Source of the DNA: a virus
Lineage: Duplodnaviria > Caudoviricetes
IMG/VR virus record: IMGVR_UViG_3300028833_000158
Span: 1,274-65,273 of that record
Strand: one strand, 5' to 3'
Length of the DNA stretch: 64,000 nt
The notes below the pieces were generated by a model. The model was not told the origin of the DNA, made no database searches, and saw only the letters and a list, made by a program, of their open reading frames with translations. Below are positions 9 to 63,236 of the stretch, in pieces; position 1 is the stretch's first letter, and each line of letters begins with the position of its first letter. The position numbers were made by a program, and so were the translations under genes.

Positions 9-1394
9 TTGAGAAGTCGTCTTTCCAGATATGGTGTAATTCATGATGATCAGTTAAATAAGGCTATATTGTCTATAGGTGATACTACGATGGAGCATTC
101 AGACATAATTGATGTATCTGGAGATGAGTTTATTGAACACAAACTTAACAGAACAGAATTTCAGCATCCTGGGTATTATACACCAAATCTTAGGCCGACT
201 GTCGTTTACAAATGGCATAGTGCTTCATTAGAAGAAGATCCATCAGGAAGACTTAATCCTACTGTTTGGTTTGACTTTGCTGAGAATGTTCCTATACACG
301 AAGGAGATGTGTTTGTAACTACTCATTTCGTATCAGATCCAAGAATGATTAATGATGACAACTTGTTAAGGAACCGTATAAGAGGAGCCGTCGAGCAGAT
401 GGCTAAAAATGCAACAAAAAATGGAAAACTTCCATATACCATTCCTGACAGCGAACTTATGCACTGTACAAGAAGTATTCAGAGATTGCTTAAGCAGTAT
501 CAGCAGTCCCATCCGAATTTTGTAAATAAGTTAACTCATTCTATTGGAACTTATTACGTAGTAGATTCTGACTACCTTGAGCATCATGGTATTTTAGGAA
601 TGCATTGGGGAGTAAGACGGTTCCAGAATAAAAATGGATCTCTTACTCCTGCTGGAAGAGATAGGTATTTAAAAGGCGGAAGAAATTCTGAAAGTAAATC
701 TGAATCCGAGTCAAAGTCTGAAAATAACCAAGATGAAAAGTATGGTTTTAGTGCTGTAGGTATGGTAACGTTAGCTTATGCCGGAGCTTATCTGGCATTG
801 TTCGGAATTGCTATTGGAAGTGAAGTTGCTGCAGCAGCTAAAGAAAAACATCGTGAAAAGAAAGCAGAAGAAGAATTATTCGCTGAGGATAAGCAGTACG
901 GTCTTAAGAAAGAAGATCTTAAGAAATGCAATCCAAATTTTGGAAAAGACGGTTATAATAATAACTGTCCAAAATGCTCTACCGTAATGGAACTCAGAAA
1001 AAGAGGAATGGATGTACAAGCAAATTCTGGAAGTGGTCAGACAATGAAAGAAATGTGCTCATGGTTTAAGAATTGCAAGTACGAGAGTGATATGCATGTT
1101 TCAGCAGCAAAAGAAAAGATACTAAGCTATCCTCCAGGATCCAGCGGATTCGTTTCTGGATTTTACAAAGGTTTTGGCGGTCATGTTGTGCACTGGACAA
1201 ATGTTGGCGGAGAAATACGAATCGAGGACGGACAGAGTGGAAAGGTATATACCTGGGATCAGGCAGTGAAAAGGTATAATTGGCAAGAGGATAGATATTC
1301 TGTAGCAAGATTAGACAATTGTGCTATAAATGAAAAAGCCATGAAGAAGGCCGGAGTTTATACAGAATATGAAGAAGGAGACAAAAAGAAATGA
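9..1394 (+). CDS. HHG-motif putative virion protein with C-terminal papain-like (Tox-PL/glutamine deamidase-like) domain; 5' end may lie outside the window
   Basis: Internal YLEHHGILGMHWGVRRFQN motif, then a hydrophobic helix, then NCPKC..MELRKRGMDVQA / GGHVVHW / IEDGQSG (Cys-His-Asp papain-fold pattern). The frame is open to the window edge. Confidence 0.65.
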   Translation: MRSRLSRYGVIHDDQLNKAILSIGDTTMEHSDIIDVSGDEFIEHKLNRTEFQHPGYYTPNLRPTVVYKWHSASLEEDPSGRLNPTVWFDFAENVPIHEGDVFVTTHFVSDPRMINDDNLLRNRIRGAVEQMAKNATKNGKLPYTIPDSELMHCTRSIQRLLKQYQQSHPNFVNKLTHSIGTYYVVDSDYLEHHGILGMHWGVRRFQNKNGSLTPAGRDRYLKGGRNSESKSESESKSENNQDEKYGFSAVGMVTLAYAGAYLALFGIAIGSEVAAAAKEKHREKKAEEELFAEDKQYGLKKEDLKKCNPNFGKDGYNNNCPKCSTVMELRKRGMDVQANSGSGQTMKEMCSWFKNCKYESDMHVSAAKEKILSYPPGSSGFVSGFYKGFGGHVVHWTNVGGEIRIEDGQSGKVYTWDQAVKRYNWQEDRYSVARLDNCAINEKAMKKAGVYTEYEEGDKKK

Positions 1395-1711
1395 ATGAAA
1401 GGGAAGCAGCTAATATAGTTGAGCAGAAACATCCTGAATATGTGGCTTCTGCTGCAATGAAACTTGGTAATGGTTTTGTTGTAAATATGAAAGGTAAAGA
1501 TGGTGAAGAACTTCTTGACTGTATGTATGCAGTAAACGAAGATGGAACAAAAGTAATGGAATTTAATCCTGAAGCTTGCTTTGAAGAGTTCCAGAAAGCT
1601 TTACCTAATGTCGTTGAGTTCGGAAAAGAAACAAAGCAATCTGCTATAATTCCTGAACTTGATGATTTTCTTGAGCATCACGGCGTTAAAGGAATGCAGA
1701 TAAAGAAATAA
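1391..1711 (+). CDS. Hypothetical protein, possible immunity partner; ends in a truncated HHG motif
   Basis: ATGA overlap with the upstream gene; acidic; C-terminal FLEHHGVKGMQIKK. Confidence 0.55.
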   Translation: MNEREAANIVEQKHPEYVASAAMKLGNGFVVNMKGKDGEELLDCMYAVNEDGTKVMEFNPEACFEEFQKALPNVVEFGKETKQSAIIPELDDFLEHHGVKGMQIKK

Positions 1712-1855
1712 CTCCTCTCATAAGCTATAGCTAGAGAGGGTTATATATTTTAGATTAGGGTCCTAGTAAAACCTTATCTAAATCATTAAAATAACCCAAG
1801 TCTTAAATCGCGCAATGGGTTATCACAACAACACAATTTTTAAAGGAGAATTATT

Positions 1856-2566
1856 ATGAGCGCTTTAAAATGGGACGAAGTAGGAGAGCATCTCTTCGAA
1901 ACAGGTATTGACCACGGTGTACTTTATCCTATGTCAGATAGTGGTACTTATCCTCTTGGAGTAGCTTGGAATGGCCTTACTGGCGTAACCGAGTCTCCCG
2001 AAGGAGCCGAGGCTAATGATAAGTATGCTGACAACATTAAGTATCTGTCAATCAGATCAGCAGAGACCTTCAAGGCTACTGTTAAAGCATTTACTTATCC
2101 TGATGAGTGGGCACAGTGCAATGGCGAAGCTGTTGTAAATGGTGTTACTGTAGGACAGCAGTCAAGAAAGAGCTTTGGTCTTGTTTACAGGACTATCGTT
2201 GGTAACGATATTAAGGGTAATGACTACGCTTACAAGCTTCACCTCGTATACAATGGCACTGCATCACCTTCCGAGAGAGATTACCAGACTGTTAACGATA
2301 GCCCCGATGCAATCGAATTCAGCTGGGAGATCGATACCACTCCTGTAACTCTTACTACAAAGATTGATGGTAAGACTCTTAAGCCTACATCAATTCTTAC
2401 TATCGACAGCAGCAATTTCACTACAGAAGCAGCTAAGGCTAAGCTTAATACTCTTGAGGCAGCTCTGTTTGGAACTGATGCTGATCCCGAGGATCCTCAG
2501 TCTGTTGGAACTGAGCCTTATCTTCCGGATCCTGACACCGTTATTAGCATGCTTTCTGTTGGCTGA
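1856..2566 (+). CDS. Major tail (tube) protein
   Basis: LKWD..GE..FETG.DHGVLY, GVAWNGLTGVTESPEGAE, YADNIKY.SIRSAE.F, YKLHLVY pattern of siphovirus tail tube proteins; AAAGGAG RBS. Confidence 0.85.
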   Translation: MSALKWDEVGEHLFETGIDHGVLYPMSDSGTYPLGVAWNGLTGVTESPEGAEANDKYADNIKYLSIRSAETFKATVKAFTYPDEWAQCNGEAVVNGVTVGQQSRKSFGLVYRTIVGNDIKGNDYAYKLHLVYNGTASPSERDYQTVNDSPDAIEFSWEIDTTPVTLTTKIDGKTLKPTSILTIDSSNFTTEAAKAKLNTLEAALFGTDADPEDPQSVGTEPYLPDPDTVISMLSVG

Positions 2567-2590
2567 TAACAAGTAATTTCAAAATGATTT

Positions 2591-2619
2591 AGGGGCTGGC
2601 TTAATCGCTGGCCCCTTTT
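2591..2619 (+). terminator. Intrinsic terminator after the tail tube gene
   Basis: AGGGGC..GCCCCT stem followed by TTTT. Confidence 0.65.
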
Positions 2620-2643
2620 GTTGTGCTTAGAAAGGAGCATATT

Positions 2644-3096
2644 ATGTATATTAAGACTATCGAATACAAAGACTACATGGGTAATCCTAGAAAGGAAGAT
2701 TTCTATTTCAACCTTAGTGAGGCTGAAATAATGGAAATGGAGCTTTCTAAAGAGGGTGGATTTGATCAGTGGATTACCAGGATTGCTAATGCTCAGAATA
2801 CTCCTGAGCTTATCAAACTTTTTAAGAGCCTTATTCTCATGTCTTACGGTGAAAGATCTCTTGACGGAAAGAGTTTCCTCAAGAAAGATCCTGAGACCGG
2901 AAGACCCCTGAGCGAGGCTTTTGAGCAGACAGCTGCATATCCCGTACTTTTTATGCAACTTGCTACCAACACCGAAGCAGCTACGGAATTTATTAATCAG
3001 GTTATACCTGAAGATGCAGCTAATGCTGTAGAAAAAGCTAAAGCTGACGGAAGCTTGGAAGAGGCAACATCTAAGATCTATCCCCTCTCCAAGTAA
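2644..3096 (+). CDS. Tail assembly chaperone
   Basis: Follows the tail tube gene; TIEYKDY.GN.RKEDFYFNLSEAEI..MEL..SYGERS.DG..F.K pattern; RBS AAAGGAG supports ATG 2644. Confidence 0.7.
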   Translation: MYIKTIEYKDYMGNPRKEDFYFNLSEAEIMEMELSKEGGFDQWITRIANAQNTPELIKLFKSLILMSYGERSLDGKSFLKKDPETGRPLSEAFEQTAAYPVLFMQLATNTEAATEFINQVIPEDAANAVEKAKADGSLEEATSKIYPLSK

Positions 3097-3108
3097 AGAT
3101 ATGGACTT

Positions 3109-3210
3109 GAATCCCCATACTCTATGAGAGTGCGAGGGCTATTGTAAGACCATTCTTTGTCTCCTTTCCTTGGCTGATAGTCTTCGCATTTTCACAAAGT
3201 ATGGGGATTC
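3109..3210 (+). other. 34-bp imperfect inverted repeat (probable RNA hairpin)
   Basis: Arms 3109-3142 and 3177-3210; 4 of the 6 deviations are G-U pairs on the + strand. Confidence 0.75.
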
Positions 3211-3232
3211 TTATTAAAGAGGAGATCTTAAT

Positions 3233-4081
3233 ATGAGCTATTATTACTATGTTGGAAGGTCTCCAGATTATTTGGAGCATCATGGGATTCTAGGAATGAA
3301 ATGGGGAGTTAGAAGATTCCAGAATAAAGATGGATCACTTACTCCGGAAGGGAGAGCTAGGTATGGCGATATTCTCACTAAGAAACAGATGCAGAACTAT
3401 ATTAAAGACTATAATCTTCGGACTGGAGCAAATAAAAAGATCACTAAAAACACTGTTTTCAAGACCGCTGACGGCATGTACGACTATAAAGGCCGCAAGA
3501 TGAATACGGATGTAACAGTTGATGATCCGATGAATGATGTAGAGAATAAAACCGAAACAAAGCCTAAGAAAATTTCTGATTTAACAGATTCTGAACTTGC
3601 AGCAATAAATAAAAGAATGCAGTTAGAGGAAGAATACAAAAAGCATTTGGACAATACGATTCCTCCTAAGAAAGTAAATTTCATCAAATCTTCTCTTGGA
3701 AATTTAAAGAATAATTTAGTAAATGATCTTCCTAAAGGAATAAGCAGCGGTCTTCAGAGTGCACTTTCTGATGCTATAAAAGATTCTTTAAAAACAAAAG
3801 AACCTCCAAAGAAAACAGACATGCACATGGACACAACAAAAGCTTCAGATAAGGATATAGCAGACCTAGCAACAAGATGGGAAAATTTGATGAAGATTGA
3901 AAGGAATAAAAGAGATTACGATAATCGTATGGCAGAAATTGGAGAAGAGATGCTATCCGATTATTGGCCTAAGGAAGACAAAGCTATTAAATATGACGAA
4001 AGATCTAAATCTGATATGGAAGGAAATCCGCTTAATCCTGACAATTACAGATACTATTTAGATGACAAGAGCAAGAAATAG
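3233..4081 (+). CDS. HHG-motif putative virion protein
   Basis: N-terminal YLEHHGILGMKWGVRRFQNKDGSLTPEGRARY, near-identical to the motif in 9..1394; immediately upstream of portal. Confidence 0.7.
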   Translation: MSYYYYVGRSPDYLEHHGILGMKWGVRRFQNKDGSLTPEGRARYGDILTKKQMQNYIKDYNLRTGANKKITKNTVFKTADGMYDYKGRKMNTDVTVDDPMNDVENKTETKPKKISDLTDSELAAINKRMQLEEEYKKHLDNTIPPKKVNFIKSSLGNLKNNLVNDLPKGISSGLQSALSDAIKDSLKTKEPPKKTDMHMDTTKASDKDIADLATRWENLMKIERNKRDYDNRMAEIGEEMLSDYWPKEDKAIKYDERSKSDMEGNPLNPDNYRYYLDDKSKK

Positions 4082-4107
4082 TTTCTTTGAGAAAGGAAAA
4101 ATTCAAA

Positions 4108-5367
4108 ATGGGTTTAAAAGATAGACTTCAGCATGGATGGAATGCCTTTCTCGGAAGAGACGGCCCCTACTATGATTATAGGGATTATGGTGAAGCATAC
4201 TTTACAAGACCCGATAGGGTTAGATTTACAAGAGGACATGAGCGTTCAATAATAAATGCTGTATACAATAGAATAGCTATTGACGCAGCCACAATTGACA
4301 TTCGTCACGTTCGAACTGATAAAGATGGAAGGTACACTGAAGAGATTAACAGTGGACTTAATGATTGTCTGTCTTTATCTGCAAATAAAGATCAGAACGG
4401 AAGACAGTTTATTCAGGATGTTGTCATGTCGCTTCTCGATGAAGGTTGCATAGCTATAGTACCTATAGATACCACAGTTGACATAACAAAGGGTGCTTTT
4501 GATGTTAATTCAATGCGTCCAGGTAAAATCGTTCAGTGGTATCCTGATTATGTTAGAGTTAAAGTATACAACGATAGAATTGGGCACGAGCAGGAGATAA
4601 CTCTCCCTAAAGAGTCGGTTGCAATAATAGAGAATCCGTTTTATTCAGTAATGAATGAACCTAGCTCAACCGCATCAAGACTTATGCGAAAGCTTAATTT
4701 GTTGGATACTATAGACGAACATAATTCAACAGGAAAGCTCGATATGATTATACAGCTTCCATACATTATTAAAACACCTGCTAGAAGACAGCAGGCTGAG
4801 AATAGGCGTAAAGACATAGAGCTTCAGTTGTCTAGTTCAAAGTATGGGATAGCCTATACTGATGGTACAGAAAGGATAACTCAGCTTAATAGATCAATAG
4901 ATAACAACATGATCGAACAGGTTGAATACTTCACCAATATGCTGTACAGTCAGTTAGGTATAACTCAGGCTATAATGGACGGAACTGCTGATGAAAAAGT
5001 CATGCAGAATTATTACACAAGAACAATTGAGCCTATAGTCTCTGCTATAACTGATGAAATAAAACGTAAATTTCTTACTAAAACGGCTAGAACCCAAGGT
5101 CAGTCGATTATGTTCTTTAGAGACCCGTTCAAACTTATGCCCATTGCTGATTTCGCGGAGTTGGCAGATAAGCTTACTAGGAACTGTATCGCTACTTCTA
5201 ACGAAATAAGACAGGCAATAGGAATGAAACCGGTTAATGATCCTCAGGCTGATCAGCTTATCAACAACAATCTTTCACAGCCGAAAGAGGCACTTGAAGG
5301 AGCTGAAGCAGTTGAGATAGATAAGAACCTTAAAGGTAAGAAAATGGAGGAAATTCAAAATGGGTAA
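4108..5367 (+). CDS. Portal protein (HK97-like)
   Basis: RLQHGWNAF, RIAIDAA..DIRHVR, GKIVQWYP..VRV.VYND, GKLDMIIQLPY, NEIRQ.IG..P; adjacent to protease/capsid. Confidence 0.9.
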   Translation: MGLKDRLQHGWNAFLGRDGPYYDYRDYGEAYFTRPDRVRFTRGHERSIINAVYNRIAIDAATIDIRHVRTDKDGRYTEEINSGLNDCLSLSANKDQNGRQFIQDVVMSLLDEGCIAIVPIDTTVDITKGAFDVNSMRPGKIVQWYPDYVRVKVYNDRIGHEQEITLPKESVAIIENPFYSVMNEPSSTASRLMRKLNLLDTIDEHNSTGKLDMIIQLPYIIKTPARRQQAENRRKDIELQLSSSKYGIAYTDGTERITQLNRSIDNNMIEQVEYFTNMLYSQLGITQAIMDGTADEKVMQNYYTRTIEPIVSAITDEIKRKFLTKTARTQGQSIMFFRDPFKLMPIADFAELADKLTRNCIATSNEIRQAIGMKPVNDPQADQLINNNLSQPKEALEGAEAVEIDKNLKGKKMEEIQNG

Positions 5368-7210
5368 AACCAGAGACTTTGGAGGTTACGCCACCAGGTA
5401 TAACATCAAGTGCGCTGACGGTCGTACAATAAGACCTAATGCATTTGATGATATGGACGGCGAAACAGTACCTCTTGTGTGGGATCACAATCATAAATCC
5501 CCATTGAATGTTCTCGGCCACGCTCTTCTTCACAAAAGAGATGATGGCGTTTATGCAGATTTATATTTCAATGAAGAGACTACTCAGGGCGCTAATGCTA
5601 AGGCTCTTGTAAAGAACGGTGATGTTAAAGCGCTCTCTATCTTTGCAAATGGTCTTGCCCAGGACGAAGCAAAGAACGTTATGCACGGAGTAATTCGTGA
5701 GGTTTCTCTTGTTCTTGCTGGAGCTAATCCTGGAGCTTTCATTGATACTGCTATGGCGCATAGTATTGATGGTGAAGATCCTGACGAGGCTATAATTTAT
5801 ATGACCGAAGATCCGATAACACATAGTTTTTATGGAATCGATAGTGCCGCAACAGAAGTTGATGAAAGTAATATCGATGAAGAAGAAATCGTCGAGCATT
5901 CGGATAAAAAAGATGATGAATCCGATGATAAAGATGATGAAACTTATGGAGACGTTATAGCTTCCATGACAGAAAAGCAGCAAAAAGTAGTCGCAGAACT
6001 TGTAGCAAGAGCTGCTATAAAGTCTGATGAATATGATAACAATTCCGATGATAAAGGAGAAAAAGAAATGAAGCACAATGTTTTTGACAATGATTCTGCT
6101 AGCGCTTATGTCGAGCATGGTTTAACCAAAGACGAACAGAAAATGATCATCGCAGACGCAGACAGATATGGATCACTCAAGCAGTCTTTCCTTGCTCATA
6201 GTGAAGAGCTTGGAATTAGCGGTGATGTTCTTATGCATGGAACCGACATCGAGTATTCTGAGGACAAACAGGCGTACATGGTAAATGATCCTTCATTCCT
6301 GTTCCCTGAAGCAAAGGCTCTCAACAATCCTCCTGCATGGATCAAGAGAGATACTGGTTGGGTTTCTGGAGTTCTTTCTGGAACCAAGCATGTTCCTTTC
6401 AGCCGTATCAAGTCTGTATTTGCTGACATCACCGAAGATGAAGCAAGGGCTAAGGGATACATTAAGGGTGATAAGAAGCTTGATGAGGTCTTCACTCTGC
6501 TTAGAAGAAGCACCGATCCCCAGACCATTTACAAGCACCAGTCAATGGATCGTGATGATGTTATCGACATCACCGATTTCGACGTTGTAGCTTGGATCAA
6601 GTCTGAGATGAGAATGATGCTCGACGAGGAGATCGCTCGTGCTATTCTCATTGGTGATGGAAAGCTTACTTCTGATAGAACTCACATTGCTCATGATCAT
6701 ATCAGACCTATCTGGCTTGATGACGATCTCTTCACCATTAAGACTCTTGTTGAGCTCGCTGCTAATGCTACTGATGATACTAAGGCTAAAGCTTACATCA
6801 GAGCTGCAGTTAAGGCTCGTAAGAACTACAAGGGATCTGGAAACCCTGTATTCTACACCACTGAGGATGTTCTTACCGATATGCTGCTTCTTGAGGATAA
6901 CATGGGGCATAGACTTTACAAGTCTGAGTCTGAAGTTGCTTCCGCTATGCGTGTAAGTAGGATCGTAACTGTTCAGGTCATGGAAGGACAGAGCAGAACT
7001 GTTGATAATGTTACAAGAAATCTCGTAGGTATCATCGTTAACCTTTCCGACTATACCGTAGGTGCAGATAAGGGTGGAGCTGTTGCTATGTTCGATGACT
7101 TCGACATCGATTACAACAAGCAGAAGTATCTGATTGAGACCAGATGCTCTGGCGCTCTTACTGTTCCTTACAGTGCAATCGTTATCGAGTCTGCTGTAGC
7201 TAACTCATAA
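5360..7210 (+). CDS. Prohead protease-major capsid protein fusion
   Basis: N-terminal HK97-type protease (VPLVWDHNH, LSIF, EVSLVLAGANPGA), acidic linker, C-terminal capsid domain (EMRMMLDEEIARAILIGDG, FDIDYNKQKYLIETRCSGAL). Confidence 0.9.
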   Translation: MGKTRDFGGYATRYNIKCADGRTIRPNAFDDMDGETVPLVWDHNHKSPLNVLGHALLHKRDDGVYADLYFNEETTQGANAKALVKNGDVKALSIFANGLAQDEAKNVMHGVIREVSLVLAGANPGAFIDTAMAHSIDGEDPDEAIIYMTEDPITHSFYGIDSAATEVDESNIDEEEIVEHSDKKDDESDDKDDETYGDVIASMTEKQQKVVAELVARAAIKSDEYDNNSDDKGEKEMKHNVFDNDSASAYVEHGLTKDEQKMIIADADRYGSLKQSFLAHSEELGISGDVLMHGTDIEYSEDKQAYMVNDPSFLFPEAKALNNPPAWIKRDTGWVSGVLSGTKHVPFSRIKSVFADITEDEARAKGYIKGDKKLDEVFTLLRRSTDPQTIYKHQSMDRDDVIDITDFDVVAWIKSEMRMMLDEEIARAILIGDGKLTSDRTHIAHDHIRPIWLDDDLFTIKTLVELAANATDDTKAKAYIRAAVKARKNYKGSGNPVFYTTEDVLTDMLLLEDNMGHRLYKSESEVASAMRVSRIVTVQVMEGQSRTVDNVTRNLVGIIVNLSDYTVGADKGGAVAMFDDFDIDYNKQKYLIETRCSGALTVPYSAIVIESAVANS

Positions 7211-7849: not shown

Positions 7850-8236
7850 ATGAGTTCAGCAATCACATGTACAGTTAAAGGTAATTTTAAGAAAACTAAT
7901 TCGTTTCTTGAGAGATGTTTAAACTTTGTAAAACTTGGAAGGCTGGACCATTATGGACGTGTAGGAGTAGAGGCTTTTAGAAACAACACTCCTAAATACA
8001 CTGGATTAGCGGCATCTTCTTGGTATTACAAGATAGAAAGAAACGATCAAACTGCTAGTCTTATATTTTGTAATGATGACATAGAAGGTGGATTAAATGT
8101 GGCTATACTTATTGCTTATGGACACGGCACCAGAGGAGGTGTTTATGTTCCAGGTGTTGATTATATAACGCCATCTATGAAAAAGGTTCTTGTAGAAGTA
8201 GCTAATGATATGAGAAAGGAGATAGGGTCATTATGA
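7850..8236 (+). CDS. HK97 gp10-like tail completion protein
   Basis: KGNFKKT..FL, TP..TG..ASSWYY.I, VAILI.YGHGTRGG.YV.G.DYI.P. Confidence 0.6.
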   Translation: MSSAITCTVKGNFKKTNSFLERCLNFVKLGRLDHYGRVGVEAFRNNTPKYTGLAASSWYYKIERNDQTASLIFCNDDIEGGLNVAILIAYGHGTRGGVYVPGVDYITPSMKKVLVEVANDMRKEIGSL

Positions 8237-29122: not shown

Positions 29123-30853
29123 ATGTTATCAAATACTGCAACACCGTATTATTACGGATTATTCCGGGATGCAGTATTAAGAGGAGAAATACCTGTAAAC
29201 AGGGAAATCTCTTTGGAAATGAACCGTATAGATAATCTCATACGCAACCCGGATTATTATTACGACGATAGAGCAGTTGAAGGATGGATTGCCTTTTGCG
29301 AAAACGAATTGACACTAACTGATGGATCAGATATGCATATGCTTGACTCATTTAAATTATGGGGCGAGCAAGTATTCGGATGGTGGGAATTCATAGAAAA
29401 GTCAACATATGATCCAGAAATTGGACGATATGTTTCAAGACTAGCGAAGAAACGTCTTATAAATAAACAGTATCTCATAGTTGGTCGAGGTGCTGCTAAG
29501 TCATTATACGACACTTCGATTCATGGATATTTTTTAAATGTTGACACTACAGCGACTCATCAGATAACAACAGCACCTACTCTTCAGTTGGCTGATGAGG
29601 TATTAAGTCCATTAAGAACTGCTATTACAAGAGCTAAAGGACCATTATTTGCTTTCTTAACGGAAGGATCTTTACAGAATACAACCGGTAGTAGAGCAAA
29701 TAGACAAAAATTAGCAGCAACAAAGAAAGGAATAGAGAATTTCCTTACTGGTTCATTGCTCGAAGTTAGACCTATGTCTATAGACAAACTTCAGTCAATG
29801 AGATGTAAGATTGCTACTATTGATGAGTGGCTATCTTCTGATGTAAGGGAAGATGTTATGTCAGCTCTTGAGCAGACTTGTTCGAAGGTTGACGATTGGC
29901 TAATAATTTCAACATCATCTGAAGGTACTGTTCGTAATGGTCCTGGAGATGACATAAAGATTGAGTTAAGTAAAATATTAAGAGGAGAATACAACAATCC
30001 TCACGTAAGTATATTCTGGTATAAGCTTGATGATTTAGAAGAAGTTGGAATGCCTGAAATGTGGCTCAAAGCAAATCCTAATTTAGGAAAGACTGTAAGC
30101 TATGACACATATCAGACTGAAGTAGAAAGAGCTGAAAACGTTCCAAGTACAAGGAATGATATTTTAGCAAAGAGATTTGGAATACCTATGGAAGGATTCA
30201 CATACTTCTTCACGTATGATGAGACGGAGCCTCAACGACTTTACAATCTTAAAGGTATGGCTTGTTCTATGGGCGCAGACTTATCACAGGGAGACGACTT
30301 CTGTTCATTTAGTTTCTTGTTCCCGCTTCCCGGAGGAGCATTTGGAATAAAGACCAGGAATTATATTTCAAGTAGAACATTAGATAAGTTACCTCAAGCC
30401 ATGAGAAACAAGTATGAAGAGTTTATAGCAGAAGGTTCATTAATTGTTCTAGATGGCGTTATACTGGATTTAATGGTCGTTTATGACGAGCTTGATGACT
30501 TTATAACTAAGATGGAATATGATATAAGATGCTTTGGATATGATCCATATAATGCTAAAGAATTTGTTGAGAGATGGGCTTCCGAGAATGGTCCATTCGG
30601 AATTGAAAAAGTTATACAGGGAAGTAGAACTGAATCAGTTCCTCTTGGAGAAATTAAGAAATTGGCAGAAGATCGTTTATGGATATTTAATGAGGGAATA
30701 ATGCAATTTGCAATGGGTAACTGTATAGTTATGGAAGACACAAATGGTAACAGAAAACTCCTTAAGAAACGCTATGAGGCAAAGATTGACCCTGTAGCAA
30801 GTTCTATGGACGCTTTCATTGCTTACAAGAACAATCAAGATGCATTCGAATAA
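29123..30853 (+). CDS. terL: Terminase large subunit
   Basis: Walker A (GRGAAKS), Walker B (ATIDEW), nuclease motifs GADLSQGDDF and KIDPVA..MDA. Confidence 0.95.
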   Translation: MLSNTATPYYYGLFRDAVLRGEIPVNREISLEMNRIDNLIRNPDYYYDDRAVEGWIAFCENELTLTDGSDMHMLDSFKLWGEQVFGWWEFIEKSTYDPEIGRYVSRLAKKRLINKQYLIVGRGAAKSLYDTSIHGYFLNVDTTATHQITTAPTLQLADEVLSPLRTAITRAKGPLFAFLTEGSLQNTTGSRANRQKLAATKKGIENFLTGSLLEVRPMSIDKLQSMRCKIATIDEWLSSDVREDVMSALEQTCSKVDDWLIISTSSEGTVRNGPGDDIKIELSKILRGEYNNPHVSIFWYKLDDLEEVGMPEMWLKANPNLGKTVSYDTYQTEVERAENVPSTRNDILAKRFGIPMEGFTYFFTYDETEPQRLYNLKGMACSMGADLSQGDDFCSFSFLFPLPGGAFGIKTRNYISSRTLDKLPQAMRNKYEEFIAEGSLIVLDGVILDLMVVYDELDDFITKMEYDIRCFGYDPYNAKEFVERWASENGPFGIEKVIQGSRTESVPLGEIKKLAEDRLWIFNEGIMQFAMGNCIVMEDTNGNRKLLKKRYEAKIDPVASSMDAFIAYKNNQDAFE

Positions 30854-56118: not shown

Positions 56119-56124
56119 TATTTT

Positions 56125-56499: not shown

Positions 56500-56686
56500 T
56501 ATGCGGTGGCGGAATAGGTAGACGCAAATACAAATTCATGAGGATTCCAGCAGCTAACGGTTGGCAGTCATGCGAGGGTTGAGACTACGTGCCGAAAAAG
56601 CGGGACCAGGTGGAGATCATTAAACTCAAATCATGAAGAAAAAGACCGTATGTAAGGTGACAGAAATTCAAATCCTTACCCGCATA
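56500..56686 (+). ncRNA. Oversized tRNA-like element (Leu/Ser-type D arm, no canonical anticodon arm)
   Basis: Perfect TATGCGG/CCGCATA acceptor stem, TG-GCGGAATAGGTAGACGC D arm, GTAAGG/CCTTAC T stem with TTCAAAT; ~125-nt structured insert; no encoded CCA. Confidence 0.6.
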
Positions 56687-56705
56687 TTAAAAGAAAGGAG
56701 GAACA

Positions 56706-56909
56706 ATGAAAGTTTCCGAACTATATAATGAAATGCTTAAGTTATTGGAAGACGGAAAAGGAAATTATGAAATTATGATTCGCGTTGCGGACGATGACGA
56801 AAAAAGGGATTTGATATCTCATATTGACAATGTTAAATCTTTTTCTTCAAAAGTTGGATATGTTGAACTGACATCTGTTAATAACGCGTATTTAGATTGG
56901 AGAGAATGA
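56706..56909 (+). CDS. Hypothetical protein
   Basis: AAAGGAGG RBS. Confidence 0.6.
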   Translation: MKVSELYNEMLKLLEDGKGNYEIMIRVADDDEKRDLISHIDNVKSFSSKVGYVELTSVNNAYLDWRE

Positions 56910-56942
56910 CATTTGGTTCAAAGTAAGGAGGATTGATATTCT

Positions 56943-58103: not shown

Positions 58104-58142
58104 TAAATAATTCATGCCTTCTTATGAAAGGAGGAAATATTT

Positions 58143-58403
58143 ATGTTTGAAAACAAAGCTTTTGAAAAGATTTATTACTCGAGATTTATAGCATCTTGGT
58201 ATAATTCTGGAGGAAAGCGTATCAGATCATACGTTGACAGTGAAAAGAGACCTAACGATTTTGTTAGGTGGCTTCGCACGTTAACTATAAATGATAAGCA
58301 AATTCCGGAAGATGTAATCAAGGATATTCTCGAAATGGCAACAAATGGCAAGGCAGAGTTGGAATGGAACTTAAACAAATACTTAAAAGAGATTGGGCAG
58401 TAA
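58143..58403 (+). CDS. Conserved hypothetical protein
   Basis: I.YSRFIASW...GG, F..WL..L, I..MA.NGK.ELE; stop in the CAGTAATG hairpin loop. Confidence 0.75.
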   Translation: MFENKAFEKIYYSRFIASWYNSGGKRIRSYVDSEKRPNDFVRWLRTLTINDKQIPEDVIKDILEMATNGKAELEWNLNKYLKEIGQ

Positions 58404-58463
58404 TGCCCTTTCCCTTTTATTTTGTAAATAATTCACTTCCTATTATGAAAGGAGGTGATGAAT

Positions 58464-58655
58464 ATGACTTATGGAGAATTCAAAGACGTAGTTAAAAAGA
58501 CTTATCCGAATAGCGAGAATCATTTTGCAATTGGAGGCGGAATATTATTAAAGATGCCTTCATGGAAAGATGAAGAGATTAACGCATTGACGGTAAAAAG
58601 TTATGAACAGGATAGCTACGACGATGAAAACTGGTTTTTTGTCACAGCAAAGTAA
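58464..58655 (+). CDS. Hypothetical protein
   Basis: AAAGGAGGTG RBS. Confidence 0.65.
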   Translation: MTYGEFKDVVKKTYPNSENHFAIGGGILLKMPSWKDEEINALTVKSYEQDSYDDENWFFVTAK

Positions 58656-58741
58656 CAAATTAAGAGGGCTTGATATTTGATCAGGCTCTCTTATTCTTTT
58701 CGTAATTAATTCACTTCCTATTATGAAAGGAGGTAATTATT

Positions 58742-58957
58742 ATGACTAATAAAAGTTTTGAAAACACAATGATGGCACTTATTGAAGTTGGAAAACTGAT
58801 TAAGTTTGACGAGACCAGCAGTGATTACACTGATGATCTTTGTGACAAGTTAGCAGAAGTAACTAAAATATTGTCATCTATGTATGGTGATCAACAACTT
58901 AGAAAGAGTAAAAAACTCAATAAAAAACTTGAAGAAATATACGGAGATTGGGGCTGA
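58742..58957 (+). CDS. Hypothetical protein
   Basis: AAAGGAGG RBS. Confidence 0.65.
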   Translation: MTNKSFENTMMALIEVGKLIKFDETSSDYTDDLCDKLAEVTKILSSMYGDQQLRKSKKLNKKLEEIYGDWG

Positions 58958-59019
58958 AATATGCCCCTTTCCCTTTTATTTTTTATCGAAGGTTTATCAT
59001 TTGGGCTATTTTTGGGTCA

Positions 59020-59290
59020 AAAAATCGTGGTTAAAAATGTGGTTAAAAATAACCATTTGGTTAAAAATATTTAACCATTTGCAAAATTTTTTGGAATTTT
59101 TGGTTAAAAATGTAAAAATTTTTAACCAAATGGTTAAAAATAAAAAATTTTTAACCAGGCTGAAACCCAGTATTCATGCGGGTTTCAGAGGTTTTTGGTT
59201 AAAAGGTTAAAAATATTTTATAATTAATGTGAAAAAAAAATATGTATATATAATAATATAGAAAAATTTTTAACCATTTAACCAAAATGA
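59020..59290. repeat. AT-rich iteron-like region, candidate replication origin
   Basis: GGTTAAAAAT at 59029, 59041, 59059, 59102, 59132 and later, inverted TTTTTAACC copies interleaved, plus a long A/T-only stretch. Confidence 0.65.
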
Positions 59291-59313
59291 TATTTTTCAC
59301 GATTTTTAGAGTT

Positions 59314-59369
59314 TCGCAAAAAAATGTTGCCCTTTTATGGGAGAGAAGGTTATATGATGACCTTTTCTC
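59314..59369 (+). promoter_or_regulatory. Promoter-like motif plus 5' hairpin upstream of the nuclease/RNAP operon
   Basis: TCGCAAAAAAATGTTGCCCTTTTATGG (G59316 to ATG 59337), then GAGAAGGT..ACCTTTTCTC stem. Confidence 0.7.
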
Positions 59370-59411
59370 TTATTTTTATTTTTGTGTTTGGATTTTGGGA
59401 AGGAGACAAAC

Positions 59412-59732
59412 ATGAAGACGAGTAAGCAAAGACAGTACAAAAAAGAAGAAAGGAAGTTTCAATCTAGTCTTATACGAGAAATCAAAGAAAGGTTCCCTGG
59501 TTCGATGGTCTTGAAGAATGATCCGAATTATATTCAGGGAATTCCGGATTTGTTAGTATTGTATAACAAGCGTTGGGCGTCTTTGGAATGCAAACGTTCG
59601 TCGTCTAGTACTCACCAACCAAATCAGGATTATTATGTTGACAAGATGAACAAAATGTCATTCAGTCGATTTATATTTCCCGAGAATAAGGAGGAGGTAC
59701 TAGATGATCTGGAACAATCATTCAAATCTTGA
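59412..59732 (+). CDS. VRR-NUC/Holliday junction resolvase-like nuclease
   Basis: E..FQ..L..EIK.RFPG..V.KND...IQGIPDL.VL....WA.LECKRS. Confidence 0.8.
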   Translation: MKTSKQRQYKKEERKFQSSLIREIKERFPGSMVLKNDPNYIQGIPDLLVLYNKRWASLECKRSSSSTHQPNQDYYVDKMNKMSFSRFIFPENKEEVLDDLEQSFKS

Positions 59733-60264
59733 AGGCCAGCACGCTTTTATGAGTGCGAGCAAATTTCAGTGGATTAATTACACAGATATGAAATTGCTTG
59801 AAACTTATAACAACATGATGGCTGCACAAAGAGGAACTGAGTTACATGCATTTGCAGCTCAGTGTATTAAGCTTAGACAAAAATTAAAAGGCAAAGATAA
59901 TTTAGCAAACTATGTAAATGATGCAGTCGGATTTGGAATGACTCCTGAAGTTGTTTTATATTATTCCGATGTTTGCTTTGGTACTGCCGATGCTATTAAG
60001 TTTGATGAGAAGAAAAAGTTTTTAAGGATTCACGATTTAAAAACTGGTGTCACTAAAGTTCACATGGAACAGCTGGAAGTTTATGCAGCTTTATTTTGTC
60101 TTGAGTATCACATGAAGCCTGGCGATATAGGAATGGAGCTAAGGATATACCAGAATGATGATGTAATGATATTTGAACCTACTGCTGAAAACATAGTTCC
60201 AATTATGGACAAAGCAGTTAGCTTCACAAAACTAATTCATAACAACAATTTAATAGGAGTTTGA
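59704..60264 (+). CDS. PD-(D/E)XK exonuclease (DUF2800/Cas4-like)
   Basis: HAF.SAS...W, GT.LH.FA, FGTADAI, LRIHDLKTG, QL.VYAALF. Confidence 0.8.
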   Translation: MIWNNHSNLEGQHAFMSASKFQWINYTDMKLLETYNNMMAAQRGTELHAFAAQCIKLRQKLKGKDNLANYVNDAVGFGMTPEVVLYYSDVCFGTADAIKFDEKKKFLRIHDLKTGVTKVHMEQLEVYAALFCLEYHMKPGDIGMELRIYQNDDVMIFEPTAENIVPIMDKAVSFTKLIHNNNLIGV

Positions 60265-60266
60265 AA

Positions 60267-63236
60267 ATGAATGAGTATGAAAGTTTCAAAGCTTATGAAG
60301 AGCTTGAAGAGGGTTTATATTTAGAGCATTACGGAACTCCTAGACATTCTGGTAGATATCCTTGGGGCTCGGGAAAAAATCCTTATCAGCACGACAGCGA
60401 AGACTGGTTAGCAAGAGTAGAAAAGCTTCGTTCAAGAAAAAATATGGATGATAAGCAGATTGCTCGAGAAATGGGATGTACGATTAACCAGTTAAGAGCT
60501 TGGGAATCAGTTGCTAAAAACGAAAGAAAGAATGCTCAGATCACTTGGTGTAAGAAACTTGCATCTGAAGGAAAATCAGTTGCAGAGATAGAGCAGATAA
60601 CTGGAATCAAAGACAGAACAGTAAGAAACTATCTTAACAGCAATAGAGATGTTAAACCTTTGCAGGCTCAGGCAACAGCTAAGTTCTTGGAAGAACAGGT
60701 TGATAAGAAAGGTTATATTGATATTGGTAAAGGTGTAGAGAAAGATATTGTAGCAGTTGATGGAACTCTTGGAATTACATCTAACAAGCTTAAAGAAGCT
60801 ATGGAAATAATGAAAAGAGATGGCTATGATATTTACACCAATCTTAAGGTTCCTCAAGCAACTAATCCAAAGAATATGACAACTCGAGTAGTTGCATGTA
60901 AGTTCCCTGAAGGAATGACAACTAACGAGAAATACAAAGAGCTGTATAAAGCAAGAGATAATGGTGATATTCAGTCTGTTGCCGAGTATCATTCAGATGA
61001 TGCTGGTCTTACATGGAATGCTCCTAAACCTCCTGTATCTATTGATTCAAATAGAATAAAAGTTGTTTATGCTGAAGATGGAGGAATTGAGAAAGATGGT
61101 GTCATCGAAATAAGAAGAGGCGTTGCAGACTTAAGTCTTGGTGATTCTCATTATGCTCAGGTTCGTATTGCTGTTGATGGAACTCATTATCTTAAAGGTA
61201 TGGCAGTTTATAGAGATGGCAAAGACATGCCTGATGGAGTTGATATTTTGTTTAACACCAACAAGCATAGTGACAAGAAGATGATCGATGGTGATAATGG
61301 TGTTCTTAAACCAATGAAAGAAGATCCAGCTCATAAAGGAAAGATAGATCAGAGTAATCCATTTGGAGCTGTTATTATGCGTGGTGGACAATCTGATTAT
61401 GAGGATCCTAAAACTGGTGAAGTTAAACAGTCTGCTATAAATAAGATACATGATCAGGGTGATTGGGGAGAATACTCTAAAGATCTTCCTGCTCAGTTCT
61501 TATCTAAACAGAACACAGATCTCATAAAGAAACAGCTTCAGTATTCTATTAATGACATGCGTAATGAGTTCAACGATATTATGGCGATCGATAATCCTAC
61601 GATTCGTAAATATTATTTGGACAAGTTTGCATCAAGTTGTGATTCAAAAGCCGTGCATCTTAAAGCTTCTGCTCTTCCTAGGCAGCAGTATCAGGTTATT
61701 CTTCCTGTTCCGTCACTTAAGGACAATGAGATCTATGCTCCTAATTACAGAGATGGAGAACAAGTAGCGTTGGTAAGGTTTCCTCATGGTGGAACATTTG
61801 AGATACCTATATTGACTGTTAATAATAAGAATCCAGAAGCTAAGAAGTTACTTGGCACTGATCCTTCTGATGCTGTCTGCATAAATAAGAATATTGCAGA
61901 TCGATTGTCAGGTGCAGACTTTGATGGAGATACAGCAATTGTCATACCAACAGGCAGAGGAAACAAGGTTAAGATAACTAACTCTGATCCTCTTAAAGGT
62001 CTTGTTGGTTATGATGCGAAAGAAGAATATGCAACTCATGTCGAAGAGAAGAATGGTAAGAAAGTATATGTCAATAAGAATGGCGTTGTAATAAAACCCA
62101 TGGATGAGAGGACAACTCAGATAGAAATGGGTAAAGTTACAAATCTTATTACAGATATGACTGTTGCTGGTGCTCCTCTTGATGACATTGCTAAAGCTGT
62201 TAGGCATTCTCAAACTGTAATCGATGCTAAGAAACACCATCTTGACTATAAACAATCAGAGATAGACAATGACATAGCATCATTAAAGGTTATGTATCAG
62301 AGAAGAATAGATGAGAATGGTGATCTTCACATTGGTGGTGCATCTACACTGTTGTCTAGAGCTAAGCATGAGAAAGCATATCCTGAAACCAAAGGTCAAG
62401 TACATTACAACCAGATAGGAAAGCCTTGGTATAATCCGGACCTTCCTGAAGGAGCATTAATACTTAAAGAATCTGGTAGAACATTCGAAGAGACTAAGCC
62501 TGTCAAGGATGCTGATGGTAATGTAATGTACTATGAGGATACTGGTAAGCCTATAAAGGCTAAGACTGGTAAGGTTAAGCTAGCCACAGTAGATAGACCC
62601 GAGATGGCTATGACTAATGATGCTCGTACCCTGTTGTCTGCTATAAGGAGCGAGCCGGAGCTACTATATGCGGACTATGCAAACCAACTTAAAGCATTAG
62701 CAAATGAGTCACGAAAGACAATCATGTACACAAAAGGTTTGCAGTACAATCCTTCAGCTAGGAAAGAGTATGCAGAAGAAGTAGCGTCCCTTAAGGAGAA
62801 GCTAGACAATGCCTATAGGCAGAAGCCTAAGGAGGCTAGAGCACAGAACATAGCCCTGGGTATAATCAATGAGAAGATTAAGGCAGACCCTAACCTTAGT
62901 AAGAAGGATGAGAAGAAGATTAGACAGTTAGCTATAGAAACAGCAAGGTCACAGGTGGGTGTTGATCGAAAAGATAGGGAAATCACACTCACAGATAGGG
63001 AATGGGCAGCAATACAAGCTGGTGCAATTAGTGATCATATACTTTCTGAGATACTAAACAATACAAATCCTGACAGTTTAAGAGAAAGAGCAACTCCTTC
63101 TAACAACAGAGCGTTGTCTGAATCTCAAATGGCAAGGATTCGTAACATGCATAATGGTTACTATACTATTGCAGAGATTGCTGATGCAATGGGTGTTTCT
63201 ACATCAACTGTTTCTAGAGTTTTGAAAGGAGCATAA
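60267..63236 (+). CDS. Putative single-subunit two-barrel (DFDGD) RNA polymerase with N- and C-terminal HTH domains
   Basis: QVR....YLKG (61158-61199), VRFPH (61776), LSGADFDGD (61911-61931); HTH-like segments at both ends; N-terminal YLEHYG tag. ATG 60267 fits the RBS better than TTG 60261. Confidence 0.75.
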   Translation: MNEYESFKAYEELEEGLYLEHYGTPRHSGRYPWGSGKNPYQHDSEDWLARVEKLRSRKNMDDKQIAREMGCTINQLRAWESVAKNERKNAQITWCKKLASEGKSVAEIEQITGIKDRTVRNYLNSNRDVKPLQAQATAKFLEEQVDKKGYIDIGKGVEKDIVAVDGTLGITSNKLKEAMEIMKRDGYDIYTNLKVPQATNPKNMTTRVVACKFPEGMTTNEKYKELYKARDNGDIQSVAEYHSDDAGLTWNAPKPPVSIDSNRIKVVYAEDGGIEKDGVIEIRRGVADLSLGDSHYAQVRIAVDGTHYLKGMAVYRDGKDMPDGVDILFNTNKHSDKKMIDGDNGVLKPMKEDPAHKGKIDQSNPFGAVIMRGGQSDYEDPKTGEVKQSAINKIHDQGDWGEYSKDLPAQFLSKQNTDLIKKQLQYSINDMRNEFNDIMAIDNPTIRKYYLDKFASSCDSKAVHLKASALPRQQYQVILPVPSLKDNEIYAPNYRDGEQVALVRFPHGGTFEIPILTVNNKNPEAKKLLGTDPSDAVCINKNIADRLSGADFDGDTAIVIPTGRGNKVKITNSDPLKGLVGYDAKEEYATHVEEKNGKKVYVNKNGVVIKPMDERTTQIEMGKVTNLITDMTVAGAPLDDIAKAVRHSQTVIDAKKHHLDYKQSEIDNDIASLKVMYQRRIDENGDLHIGGASTLLSRAKHEKAYPETKGQVHYNQIGKPWYNPDLPEGALILKESGRTFEETKPVKDADGNVMYYEDTGKPIKAKTGKVKLATVDRPEMAMTNDARTLLSAIRSEPELLYADYANQLKALANESRKTIMYTKGLQYNPSARKEYAEEVASLKEKLDNAYRQKPKEARAQNIALGIINEKIKADPNLSKKDEKKIRQLAIETARSQVGVDRKDREITLTDREWAAIQAGAISDHILSEILNNTNPDSLRERATPSNNRALSESQMARIRNMHNGYYTIAEIADAMGVSTSTVSRVLKGA

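Follow-up and report, generated by a model that had tools for sequence, protein, structure and literature searches.

In T4, the internal proteins IPI-III and Alt bear a capsid-targeting sequence (CTS) that the gp21 prohead protease cleaves at L/I-x-E, and virion RNA polymerases (RNAPs) are known from N4 (vRNAP), the crAss-like phage phi14:2 (gp66), and phiKZ. Temperate phages are said to carry MuF-fused polymorphic toxins, reportedly described by Jamet and colleagues in 2017. In P23-45, an RNAP fused to the tape measure is reportedly carried in the virion (bioRxiv 10.1101/2022.12.01.518664). In phiKZ and SPN3US, head proteins are reported to be processed by a prohead protease that cuts at [S/A/G]-x-E (PMC10052503, PMC7411985).

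The locus analyzed here (the window, a stretch of 64,000 nucleotides) resembles each of these systems in part. As with the T4 CTS, a short N-terminal leader ends in a word of the form aliphatic-x-X, which would here too be the repeated cutting word of the scaffold, the cargo is basic, and the leader is common to unrelated proteins, including enzymes. In contrast to T4, there is no sequence homology, His takes the place of Glu, an S78 (HK97-type) protease is fused to the capsid protein in Gram-positive siphophages, and a conserved adaptor would stay after the putative cut; targeting and cleavage are here read from sequence comparison. Like the virion RNAPs, the enzyme of the window is phage-encoded and may be particle-carried, the latter judging from one annotation in phage 1706, and it shares the two-barrel architecture with the crAss-like and P23-45 enzymes. 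Unlike them, it is compact (~900-1000 aa), with a fold nearest to QDE-1 and to Thermus phage non-virion RNAPs, and in place of giant N- or C-terminal domains or a tape-measure fusion it bears an N-terminal box of 20 residues. The MuF toxins are likewise head-module proteins with swappable toxin-like C-terminal domains and a small downstream gene possibly encoding immunity, but their carrier is a folded head protein, whereas that of the window is a peptide of 20 residues, and a Pfam search found no MuF domain in the toxin-like protein or in 129 tagged relatives. In phiKZ and SPN3US, a single short consensus, also used on capsid and scaffold, reportedly serves for trimming many proteins of the head interior and of ejection, virion RNAP subunits among them; these jumbo myophages differ by another consensus and long propeptides, and are not known to have a conserved adaptor or polyprotein arrays.

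The peptide in question corresponds to Pfam entry PF23847 (DUF7211, a 25-position model), which Pfam lists without a function. Our literature search found no paper describing the tag and no measured cleavage, packaging, or ejection for any DUF7211 protein. Judging by the model, this entry covers neither the RNAP box nor the tie between L-x-H and the capsid spacer, nor the way in which the polyproteins are laid out. We consider it probable, on balance, that the motif serves as an address label in two parts, for trimming by the head protease and carriage in the particle to the next host. Its users would, with similar probability, be one very large Gram-positive siphophage lineage, the 1706 / Oengus / actinophage 'supercluster', whose defining features are a gene fusing protease and capsid and a YonO-like RNA polymerase.

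A six-frame search of the window for [YF]LEH[HY]G gave four copies and no further match, compared with 0.0035 expected from residue frequencies and 0.0033 from 300 shuffles. All four sit at the positions given in the preliminary description, in frame with real ORFs:

573-590, plus strand: YLEHHG, inside the 539-aa toxin-like ORF
1667-1684, plus strand: FLEHHG, 12 residues ahead of the stop of the 106-aa ORF 1391-1711
3269-3286, plus strand: YLEHHG, residue 13 of ORF 3233-4081
60318-60335, plus strand: YLEHYG, residue 20 of the RNAP ORF 60261-63236

Three of the copies exceed the DUF7211 gathering cut-off of 27 bits, both by hmmscan (37.7 bits for P0003, the ORF 3233-4081; 33.5 for P0001, the toxin-like ORF; 27.9 for P0002, the 106-aa ORF) and by six-frame genome search (41, 37.7, and 29.3 bits, respectively). 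The P0001 copy is internal (residue 267 of 539) rather than N-terminal. The P0002 copy is a truncated C-terminal tag covering profile positions 3-16 only, in which GMQIKK is followed by the stop without WGVRR, and the DNA alignment revealed no continuation of the tag past it. Column identity among the four DNA copies is only 61%; conservation is at the peptide rather than the DNA level. The features of the toxin-like gene and its small downstream ORF are as follows:

3-1394, plus strand: toxin-like fusion protein P0001 (full ORF 539 aa, starting 226 nt upstream of the window)
528-542, plus strand: KLTH/S (slash, putative cut), a spacer-type φ-x-H-S site in P0001, 15 residues before the tag His
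570-647, plus strand: internal DUF7211 tag DYLEH/HGILGMHWGVRRFQNKNGSLT (PF23847, 33.5 bits)
747-839, plus strand: TM-like helix of P0001
927-1322, plus strand: papain-fold glutamine-deamidase-like domain of P0001
1391-1711, plus strand: small acidic 106-aa ORF P0002, overlapping the stop of the toxin-like gene
1664-1708, plus strand: truncated tag DFLEHHGVKGMQIKK at the end of P0002 (29.3 bits)

P0001 comprises, in order, an N-domain, a spacer, the tag, the TM-like helix, and the papain-fold domain. The KLTH/S site is predicted to bound the N-domain on its C-terminal side. In the closest relative this domain has an ORF of its own (L016, 4270-4845), and the toxin-like part occurs alone, N-terminally tagged, in another (L038). 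The Tox-PL1 / Gln_amidase profile PF15644 is matched over its whole length (1-114) at 17.2 bits, below its cut-off of 24.1 (E 0.011), and is present in 22 of the 30 ESM Atlas clusters nearest to the toxin-like protein (score 0.94, 197 shared features). A Cys-His-acid motif was looked for in the sequence, which contains NNCPKC, GGHVVHW, and EDGQ. We use the term toxin-like on the strength of the sub-threshold Pfam match and the language-model similarity.

The head module continues with the core tagged protein, the portal, and the protease-capsid fusion:

3233-4081, plus strand: core tagged protein P0003, directly upstream of the portal gene
3266-3343, plus strand: N-terminal tag of P0003
3575-3643, plus strand: conserved helix SDxEL..R.qlE..Y of P0003
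4087-5367, plus strand: portal protein (phrog_12, E 1e-56; Pfam Phage_portal, 75.7 bits)
5360-7210, plus strand: prohead protease (S78)-spacer-HK97-type major capsid protein fusion (phrog_3270, E 1.5e-206)
5750-6241, plus strand: acidic spacer with six φ-x-H-[S/G] sites
5750-5764, plus strand: spacer site AMAH/S
5813-5827, plus strand: spacer site PITH/S
5888-5902, plus strand: spacer site IVEH/S
6107-6121, plus strand: spacer site YVEH/G
6188-6202, plus strand: spacer site FLAH/S
6227-6241, plus strand: spacer site VLMH/G

The tag logo was built from 141 copies in 80 related loci and the window. Leu stands two residues before the His in 135 copies, and H, G, M, W, and G are invariant; nearly all tags are N-terminal, with a median leader of 12 residues and a His index of ≤30 in 90%. 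DUF7211 is matched by 127 of 129 tagged relatives. The tag is an invariant yet disordered linear motif. All but one of the 141 tags (140) are located ahead of the capsid gene, even though the sampled sequence comprised 543 kb downstream of that gene and 467 kb upstream. A survey of the C-terminal domains behind the tag in related phages, proposed in the preliminary description, yielded 139 cargoes in 58 unrelated clusters, with a median pI of 10.1 and with GNAT (2) and Gln_amidase (1) as the sole Pfam domains. P0003 falls in the biggest cluster (45 of 139); its cargo profile matches Mudcat gp7 (6e-21), FP_oengus AUV56562 (1.4e-20), and RosaAsantewaa gp6 (4e-12), with no match to 1706 orf7, and its synteny is kept in FP_oengus.

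The fusion is a single ORF with Peptidase_S78 at residues 7-130 (35.5 bits, cut-off 21) and Phage_capsid at residues 358-608 (27.6 bits, cut-off 24.2). AF2 modeled its protease (1-131) and its capsid part (from ~316) with confidence, whereas most of the spacer is disordered, and the sites fall within disordered segments or at their borders. The words AMAHS, IVEHS, YVEHG, FLAHS, and VLMHG, reported earlier from the protease-capsid linker, all lie within it (residues 131-294), to which we add PITHS; six of the seven spacer His residues are followed by S or G. The sites are kept in 80 relatives (81 fusions with the window), in the actinophages Mudcat and RosaAsantewaa, and in 1706. Across the 81 fusions the consensus is φ-x-H-[SGA]-[DE], with an aliphatic residue two before the His at 502 of 608 sites versus a background of 21.5%. 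The L-x-H of the tags agrees with the [LIMV]-x-H of the spacer, whereas the following residues differ, being aromatic or His then Gly in the tags and small then acidic in the spacer.

The same word recurs at polyprotein module boundaries. The tag profile matches 50,620 representative proteins (~50,000 protein clusters), and the best 150 of these are polyproteins with two to five tags each at a median spacing of 212 aa. In these 150 proteins, a φ-x-H-S site precedes 116 of 274 internal tags, at a median distance of 12 residues, compared with 22 of 579 control windows (odds ratio 18.6, p 6e-44). The toxin-like fusion of the window, with its φ-x-H-S site followed by an internal tag, has this polyprotein-type layout.

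The fourth copy belongs to the RNAP gene, which was found in 12 of 12 complete relatives and lies directly upstream of the head module once the cos ends are joined:

60261-63236, plus strand: single-subunit two-barrel RNA polymerase, YonO/QDE-1-like (phrog_4291, E=0)
60315-60374, plus strand: N-terminal box LYLEH/YGTPRHSGRYPWGSG, an L-x-H-Y-G leader plus RNAP-specific adaptor
61914-61931, plus strand: catalytic ADFDGD (DxDGD loop, residues 552-557)

The ADFDGD motif is invariant among 28 RNAP homologues. Foldseek with the AF2 model (pLDDT 78.8) retrieved QDE-1 (E 1.2e-8, probability 1.00), RDR2, and the Thermus phage RNAPs P74 gp62 and P32 gp64; TM-scores are low (0.25-0.35), and the likeness to solved two-barrel RNAPs is thus at domain level. 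In the box, H23, G25, and S30-G38 are invariant in the 28 RNAPs, although residues 1-46 have a pLDDT below 50, and it is kept in Mudcat, RosaAsantewaa, Pepy6, and 1706. By hhalign the box and the tags match with 90.5% probability (E 1.4e-6) over ~11 columns, with the leader alone aligning: the common half is d-x-L-x-H-Y-G, after which the RNAP has its own invariant RSGRYPWGSG box. The DUF7211 model gave no match to the RNAP N-termini of the window, Mudcat gp94, RosaAsantewaa gp54, and MT835495 at E up to 10. The earlier observation of a motif common to the RNAP and head proteins is confirmed; three copies are DUF7211, and the RNAP shares only the first half. The residue before the His matches between the RNAP and the tags of the same phage more often than in shuffled pairings (5.88 versus 2.27, p 6.5e-4, 22 phages) in a test that ignores phylogeny and whose result gene conversion could equally give; the residue after the His showed no co-variation. 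The ReqiPepy6 RNAP leader is DYLAHYG versus DFLAHYG in the seven tagged genes that this phage has in a row.

The GenBank entry for Lactococcus phage 1706 (EU081845) annotates as 'structural protein' both the RNAP homologue orf75 (36.6% identity, E 6e-169), which also has the N-terminal box, and orf7 with its two tags. Since orf62 and orf71 carry the same label and lie in non-structural modules, it is not merely positional; the record note of ReqiPepy6 gp106 repeats the label of 1706 orf75. With regard to the two roles for which the motif had been put forward, virion loading is favored by these labels (annotation only), the confinement to the head module, and the invariance of a disordered motif, whereas cleavage has comparative support, from the shared L-x-H with differing residues after the His. 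The 1706 labels, polyprotein layout, head-module confinement, basic cargo, and RNAP-tag co-variation make packaging of the tagged proteins likely; cleavage at L-x-H is plausible. We infer that loading is signaled by the tag itself, that cleavage falls at L-x-H, and that the cargo is ejected.

The first part of the proposed label would be the short leader ending in Leu-x-His, the recurring word of the acidic disordered spacer that must be cut out of the protease-capsid precursor. The second would be a small adaptor, G-[VI]-x-G-M-K-W-G-V-R-R (DUF7211) in most cargoes and G-x-P-R-R-S-G-R-Y-P-W-G-S-G in the RNA polymerase. Basic tagged proteins would co-assemble with the acidic scaffold-like spacer and the protease inside the procapsid, where the S78 protease would then cut after His, in the spacer and at the tag. 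Such cuts would free polyprotein modules, in the window phage parting the N-domain from the tagged toxin-like module, and the cargo would remain in the head beside the DNA and be delivered at infection.

A docking motif alone, with tagged proteins and RNAP in the virion, L-x-H uncut, and the leader mimicking the spacer word to bind the protease domain, spacer, or portal, is in our estimate unlikely, as is the variant in which the GMKWGVRR adaptor alone does the binding. Docking would fit conservation that is strongest past the His, the position of P0003-type genes next to the portal gene, and the shortness of many leaders (4-8 residues, down to 'MLLH'), from which cleavage would take off almost nothing; it would also fit the different residues after the His in tags and spacer, both of which one protease pocket would need to accept. 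However, the φ-x-H-S sites a median 12 residues before internal tags are hard to explain without chain processing, and the spacer sites are placed exactly at domain boundaries. We also doubt, rather strongly, that the RNAP box has no functional relation to DUF7211, its x-L-x-H-Y-G being coincidental or ancestral and the enzyme either reaching the virion by another route (e.g., bound to the DNA end) or acting only inside the cell, like SPbeta YonO. YonO, reportedly characterized by Forrest and colleagues in 2017 as a non-virion late RNAP, is a precedent, DUF7211 gives the box no score, and just 11 columns align; against this, the box is invariant in two phyla though disordered, its residue before the His co-varies with the tags of the same phage, 1706 orf75 carries a structural label, and the gene adjoins the head module after cos joining.

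We regard as improbable that the tag is no sorting signal at all, being instead a junction for cargo-cassette recombination or a motif for DNA, cell-wall, or membrane binding or translation control. P0002 and the L016 ORF 4270-4845 (...EDYLAHHSIL) both end in truncated tags that resemble recombination scars, the toxin-like gene of the window is a fusion made at the tag, and the cargoes are highly polymorphic. In contrast, conservation is at the peptide level, with Firmicutes phages of 35% GC sharing the peptide with actinophages, among them Mudcat (45% GC), no hydrophobic signal-peptide core follows the motif, and tags are confined to the head module. A recombination role could exist alongside sorting.

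An extension of the address-label reading, which we offer only tentatively, is a modular 'L-x-H leader plus adaptor' code by which this large lineage loads almost any protein into the capsid, whether produced singly or within a polyprotein, with the capsid-fused S78 protease cutting polyproteins by a His-specific rule; the cargo range, equally tentative, would run from the RNA polymerase of the phage through toxin-like enzymes and acetyltransferases to basic proteins that coat the DNA. We know of no description of a His-specific cutting rule for any prohead protease. If true, these siphophages would inject a transcription machine along with a changeable effector set, and the 20-residue tag would be a ready handle for putting foreign proteins into phage particles.

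P0002 is a candidate immunity or inhibitor protein. A PepSY-like fold was noted for it as a weak lead.

The four (Y/F)LEH(H/Y)G hexapeptides of the preliminary description were all recovered in frame where it had placed them, and a six-frame search of the window gave no further match to the hexapeptide. The expected count is 0.0035, which rules out chance as the origin of the four copies. Their DNA is only 61% alike, and therefore it is the peptide that is conserved. The window represents bases 1274-65273 of an IMG/VR phage record of 65,273 bp that was judged complete; its GC content is 35-40%, and every gene lies on the + strand in the following arrangement.

Outside the window, directly upstream: small-terminase-like gene and connector genes, part of the left-end head/tail module
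Ends at 1394, + strand: toxin-like ORF, 539 aa
1391-1711, + strand: 106-aa ORF
1856-2566, + strand: major tail protein
2623-3096, + strand: tail assembly chaperone
3233-4081, + strand: 282-aa ORF
4087-5367, + strand: portal
5360-7210, + strand: prohead protease-capsid fusion
After the fusion, in the left-end head/tail module, + strand: neck protein, then 2890-aa tape measure
29123-30853, + strand: TerL, unusually distant from the head module
Right end, + strand: primase-polymerase, helicase, RecB-like exonuclease and 991-aa RNA polymerase (RNAP)

The gene order is rearranged, with TerL ~25 kb downstream of the portal gene, past the tail genes, and with the major tail protein and tail assembly chaperone genes (1856-3096) inside the head module, flanked by tagged genes. 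In the close relative L016, the tail-protein/chaperone pair occupies the same odd place, and TerL lies directly 3' of the small-terminase-like gene, unlike in the window.

Three of the four copies belong to Pfam DUF7211 (PF23847) and share the extended form DYLEHHGILGM(K/H)WGVRRFQNK(D/N)GSLT. The copy at 573 is internal to the 539-aa ORF, and the copy in ORF 1391-1711 is ended early by a stop codon. Rescue of this truncated tag by frameshifting was ruled out, as the DNA alignment revealed no tag continuation, and the truncation is best read as a recombination scar. Inspection of the sequences also ruled out a signal-peptide reading of the motif, since no hydrophobic core follows it. The sole other L-x-H-[HYFW]-G in the proteome, LDHYG at residue 32 of the neck/tail-completion protein (7850-8236), is neither N-terminal nor followed by an adaptor (the GMKWGVRR-type part after the His), and probably occurs by chance.

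Loci surrounding capsid-fusion homologues, 80 in all, yielded 141 tags with the logo [DN]-[EY]-L-x-H-[YHF]-G-[VI]-x-G-M-[KR]-W-G-[VI]-R-[RK]. Leu stands two residues before His in 135 of these tags, a position that the search pattern did not demand, and the leaders (Met to His) have a median length of 12 residues. All tags but one (140/141) are encoded upstream of the capsid gene on the same strand, in a sample that contains slightly more downstream than upstream DNA. The tagged cargoes fall into 58 unrelated clusters and are basic (median pI 10.1, 10th percentile 9.3); Pfam domains are nearly absent from them (GNAT twice, Gln_amidase once). The largest cluster includes ORF 3233-4081; the SDxEL...R.qlE..Y helix of this cluster recurs in Mudcat gp7, FP_oengus AUV56562, and RosaAsantewaa gp6, and the family of ORF 3233-4081 keeps a position adjoining the portal gene. 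A third, different kind of module sits between the portal and capsid genes of actinophages, where the window has no gene: Mudcat gp11 (locus L127, 7442-8053) opens with VTTPAEDFLEH-YSSQYYDP..., an L-x-H leader lacking the GMKWG adaptor, and its counterpart, ReqiPepy6 gp023 (L131, 7320-7970), contains ...RRTLIH-EYDP. The FLEH-YSS of Mudcat gp11, combined with this third module, again suggests that L-x-H is the shared element.

The spacer that joins the protease to the HK97-type capsid protein contains a related word. All five capsid-linker words listed in the preliminary description were found in the fusion, together with a sixth, and six of the seven His in residues 131-294 are followed by Ser or Gly. 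Across 81 fusions, conserved spacer sites such as SVIRH|GE, ISLYH|AD, DVLSH|SD, and SFLAH|AE (putative cuts marked by a bar) have an aliphatic residue two positions before His in 83% of sites compared to a background of 21.5%, and S, A or G, then D or E, after it; the same pattern was observed in Mudcat, RosaAsantewaa, and Lactococcus phage 1706. The AlphaFold2 (AF2) model of the fusion is confident for the protease (1-131) and the capsid part (from ~316), and segments 132-193, 223-253, and 289-313 are disordered, with the His sites inside them or at helix ends. By analogy, this layout looks like a degradable scaffold with putative cut sites; T4 gp22 is a degradable scaffold with L-x-E sites. 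Since the spacer is disordered, the model was uninformative as to how a spacer site would fit the protease active site.

A profile of the 36-residue tag region (E≤1e-3) matched 50,620 representative proteins among 1.84 billion. The best 150 of these 50,620 matches carry 2-5 tags each at a median spacing of 212 residues, approximately the size of a stand-alone tagged protein. These natural polyproteins (P0006-P0155) reach 1569 aa, with DUF7211 tags spaced by ~210 aa; the 1335-aa P0006, for example, has tags at residues 6, 255, 525, 897, and 1045. Within the polyproteins among the best 150 matches, [VLI]-x-H-S-[D/A/E], a site of the capsid-spacer type, was found at a median of 12 residues before 116 of the 274 internal tags, compared to 22 of 579 control windows (odds ratio 18.6, p 6e-44). 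A module boundary therefore consists of a spacer-type site, a short peptide, and a tag-type site.

The toxin-like ORF of the window has exactly this boundary layout (KLTH|S ... 15 residues ... YLEH|HG). The closest relative, L016 (RNAP 83% identical), encodes the N-domain in an ORF of its own that ends in ...EDYLAHHSIL-stop, and the related locus L038 has the toxin-like part by itself, tagged at the N-terminus; the window's ORF is thus a fusion made at a tag. Its sequence predicts that cleavage would separate an N-domain from a tagged toxin-like module. The toxin-like domain matched Pfam Gln_amidase at 17.2 bits, below the 24.1 threshold, yet over the whole profile, and in the ESM Atlas it was placed among PF15644 clusters (score 0.94, 22 of 30 matches). 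The 106-aa ORF is acidic and overlaps the stop codon of the toxin-like gene; its residues 1-78, as modeled in the Atlas, have a weak, low-confidence resemblance to PepSY-type domains (TM 0.57-0.63). These features would be compatible with an inhibitor or immunity protein but prove nothing.

The RNAP ORF encodes a two-barrel RNAP (phrog_4291 match at E=0) with an invariant ADFDGD. A preprint that does not discuss virions (10.1101/842583) describes this RNAP as the signature protein of a supercluster of actinophages and Lactococcus/Faecalibacterium phages. The AF2 model of the RNAP (pLDDT 78.8) is similar to QDE-1, plant RDR2, and the RNAPs of Thermus phages P74 (gp62) and P32 (gp64); sequence searches found no solved structures for either the capsid fusion or the RNAP. 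The N-terminus reads LYLEH-YGTPRHSGRYPWGSG. Membership of this N-terminal box in DUF7211 was ruled out, as the DUF7211 HMM gave no match, and the leader alone is shared: profile-profile comparison of the box with the tags aligned 11 columns (x-d-x-L-x-H-Y-G-x) with 90.5% probability (E 1.4e-6). The box is kept in MT835495, Mudcat gp94, RosaAsantewaa gp54, ReqiPepy6 gp106, 1706 orf75, and 21 IMG/VR relatives, and the RNAP itself is present in all 12 relatives with a completeness of 90% or more. H23, G25, and S30-G38 are invariant in 28 RNAP sequences, yet residues 1-46 are predicted to be disordered, and this combination, as modeled, is the signature of a partner-binding short linear motif.

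For Lactococcus phage 1706, 15 structural proteins were reportedly identified by SDS-PAGE and LC-MS/MS. Its record (EU081845) labels 11 ORFs 'structural protein', including orf75 and orf7, and the GenBank note on the ReqiPepy6 RNAP gp106 reads 'similar to Lactococcus phage 1706_gp75, structural protein'. Over 1040 residues, the 1029-aa orf75 shares 36.6% identity with the window's RNAP (E 6e-169); it starts with DDSLQH-YGTKRHSGRYPWGSG, and orf7 carries two tags, ILQH-RGVIGMRWG and ILLH-KGVKGMKWG. The label does not derive from synteny, because the structural module does not contain orf62, orf71 or orf75. The small replication-region ORFs orf62 and orf71 bear the same label; no tag was found in the sequence of orf71, and the two are possibly tag-independent cargo or contaminants. 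The cargo profile of ORF 3233-4081 did not match orf7, and therefore the 1706 evidence covers the tag and not this cargo family.

The RNAP box and the tags of the same phage have an identical residue before His far more often than shuffled pairings do (score 5.88 compared to 2.27, p 6.5e-4, 22 phages, relatedness ignored). Matching residues (RNAP/tags) are E/E in the window, Q/Q in 1706, A/A in ReqiPepy6, and M/M in the related loci L091 and L020. Gene conversion is an alternative cause of this match. No co-variation was detected in the 22 phages at the residue after His or three before it.

The best-supported model is a two-part label, composed of an L-x-H leader, which matches the spacer word of the protease, and an adaptor, either DUF7211 or the RNAP box. 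Basic tagged cargo would co-assemble with the acidic spacer and be trimmed by the protease, and the trimmed cargo would stay in the head. We consider it likely that the tagged proteins and the RNAP are present in the virion, and the full model is favored somewhat less strongly; cleavage at L-x-H, judged from sequence, is only slightly favored. The main weaknesses of the model are that the residues after His differ between tags and spacer and that the virion evidence rests on an annotation label. The very short leaders, which imply that the conserved part survives the cut, also count against it.

The nearest functional analogue is the T4 capsid-targeting sequence, which shows no homology and differs in key residue, protease context, and phage type. 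No paper mentioning DUF7211 or the GMKWG motif was found in the literature, and no virion proteomics for this lineage was found in papers describing Arthrobacter, Streptomyces, and Rhodococcus WC1 phages. New here are the explicit check of the 1706 annotation, the statistic on polyprotein boundaries, and the co-variation within phages. If the tag is a loading and processing signal, it would explain how transcription could begin without the host polymerase throughout a supercluster that includes 1706-like dairy phages of Lactococcus, Faecalibacterium phages from the gut, and hundreds of phages of Arthrobacter, Gordonia, Streptomyces, and Rhodococcus. On the same condition, tens of thousands of head-module genes now called 'hypothetical' would acquire a function, siphophages would be seen to deliver a polymorphic set of effectors, and aliphatic-x-His would be a new protease specificity. 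The model would also permit concrete, cheap tests on phages already cultured, and the tag could become a means of packaging chosen proteins into phage particles.

A strand-polar oligomer was also observed. Over the whole window, [AT]T[GT]ATATTT occurs 69 times on the + strand and 0 times on the - strand, with ~4 expected from composition, and the shorter [GT]ATATTT occurs 119 versus 6 times. The copies lie within ORFs in all frames and between genes at a median spacing of ~530 nt, for example:

5560, 9644, 13135 ... 61240, + strand: copies of the strand-polar oligomer

Only 3 of the 69 copies have a promoter-like element downstream, so the oligomer is not simply the promoter motif of the preliminary description, whose upstream half was considered as its identity and rejected. 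A role as a nick, priming, Chi-like or polymerase signal is possible.
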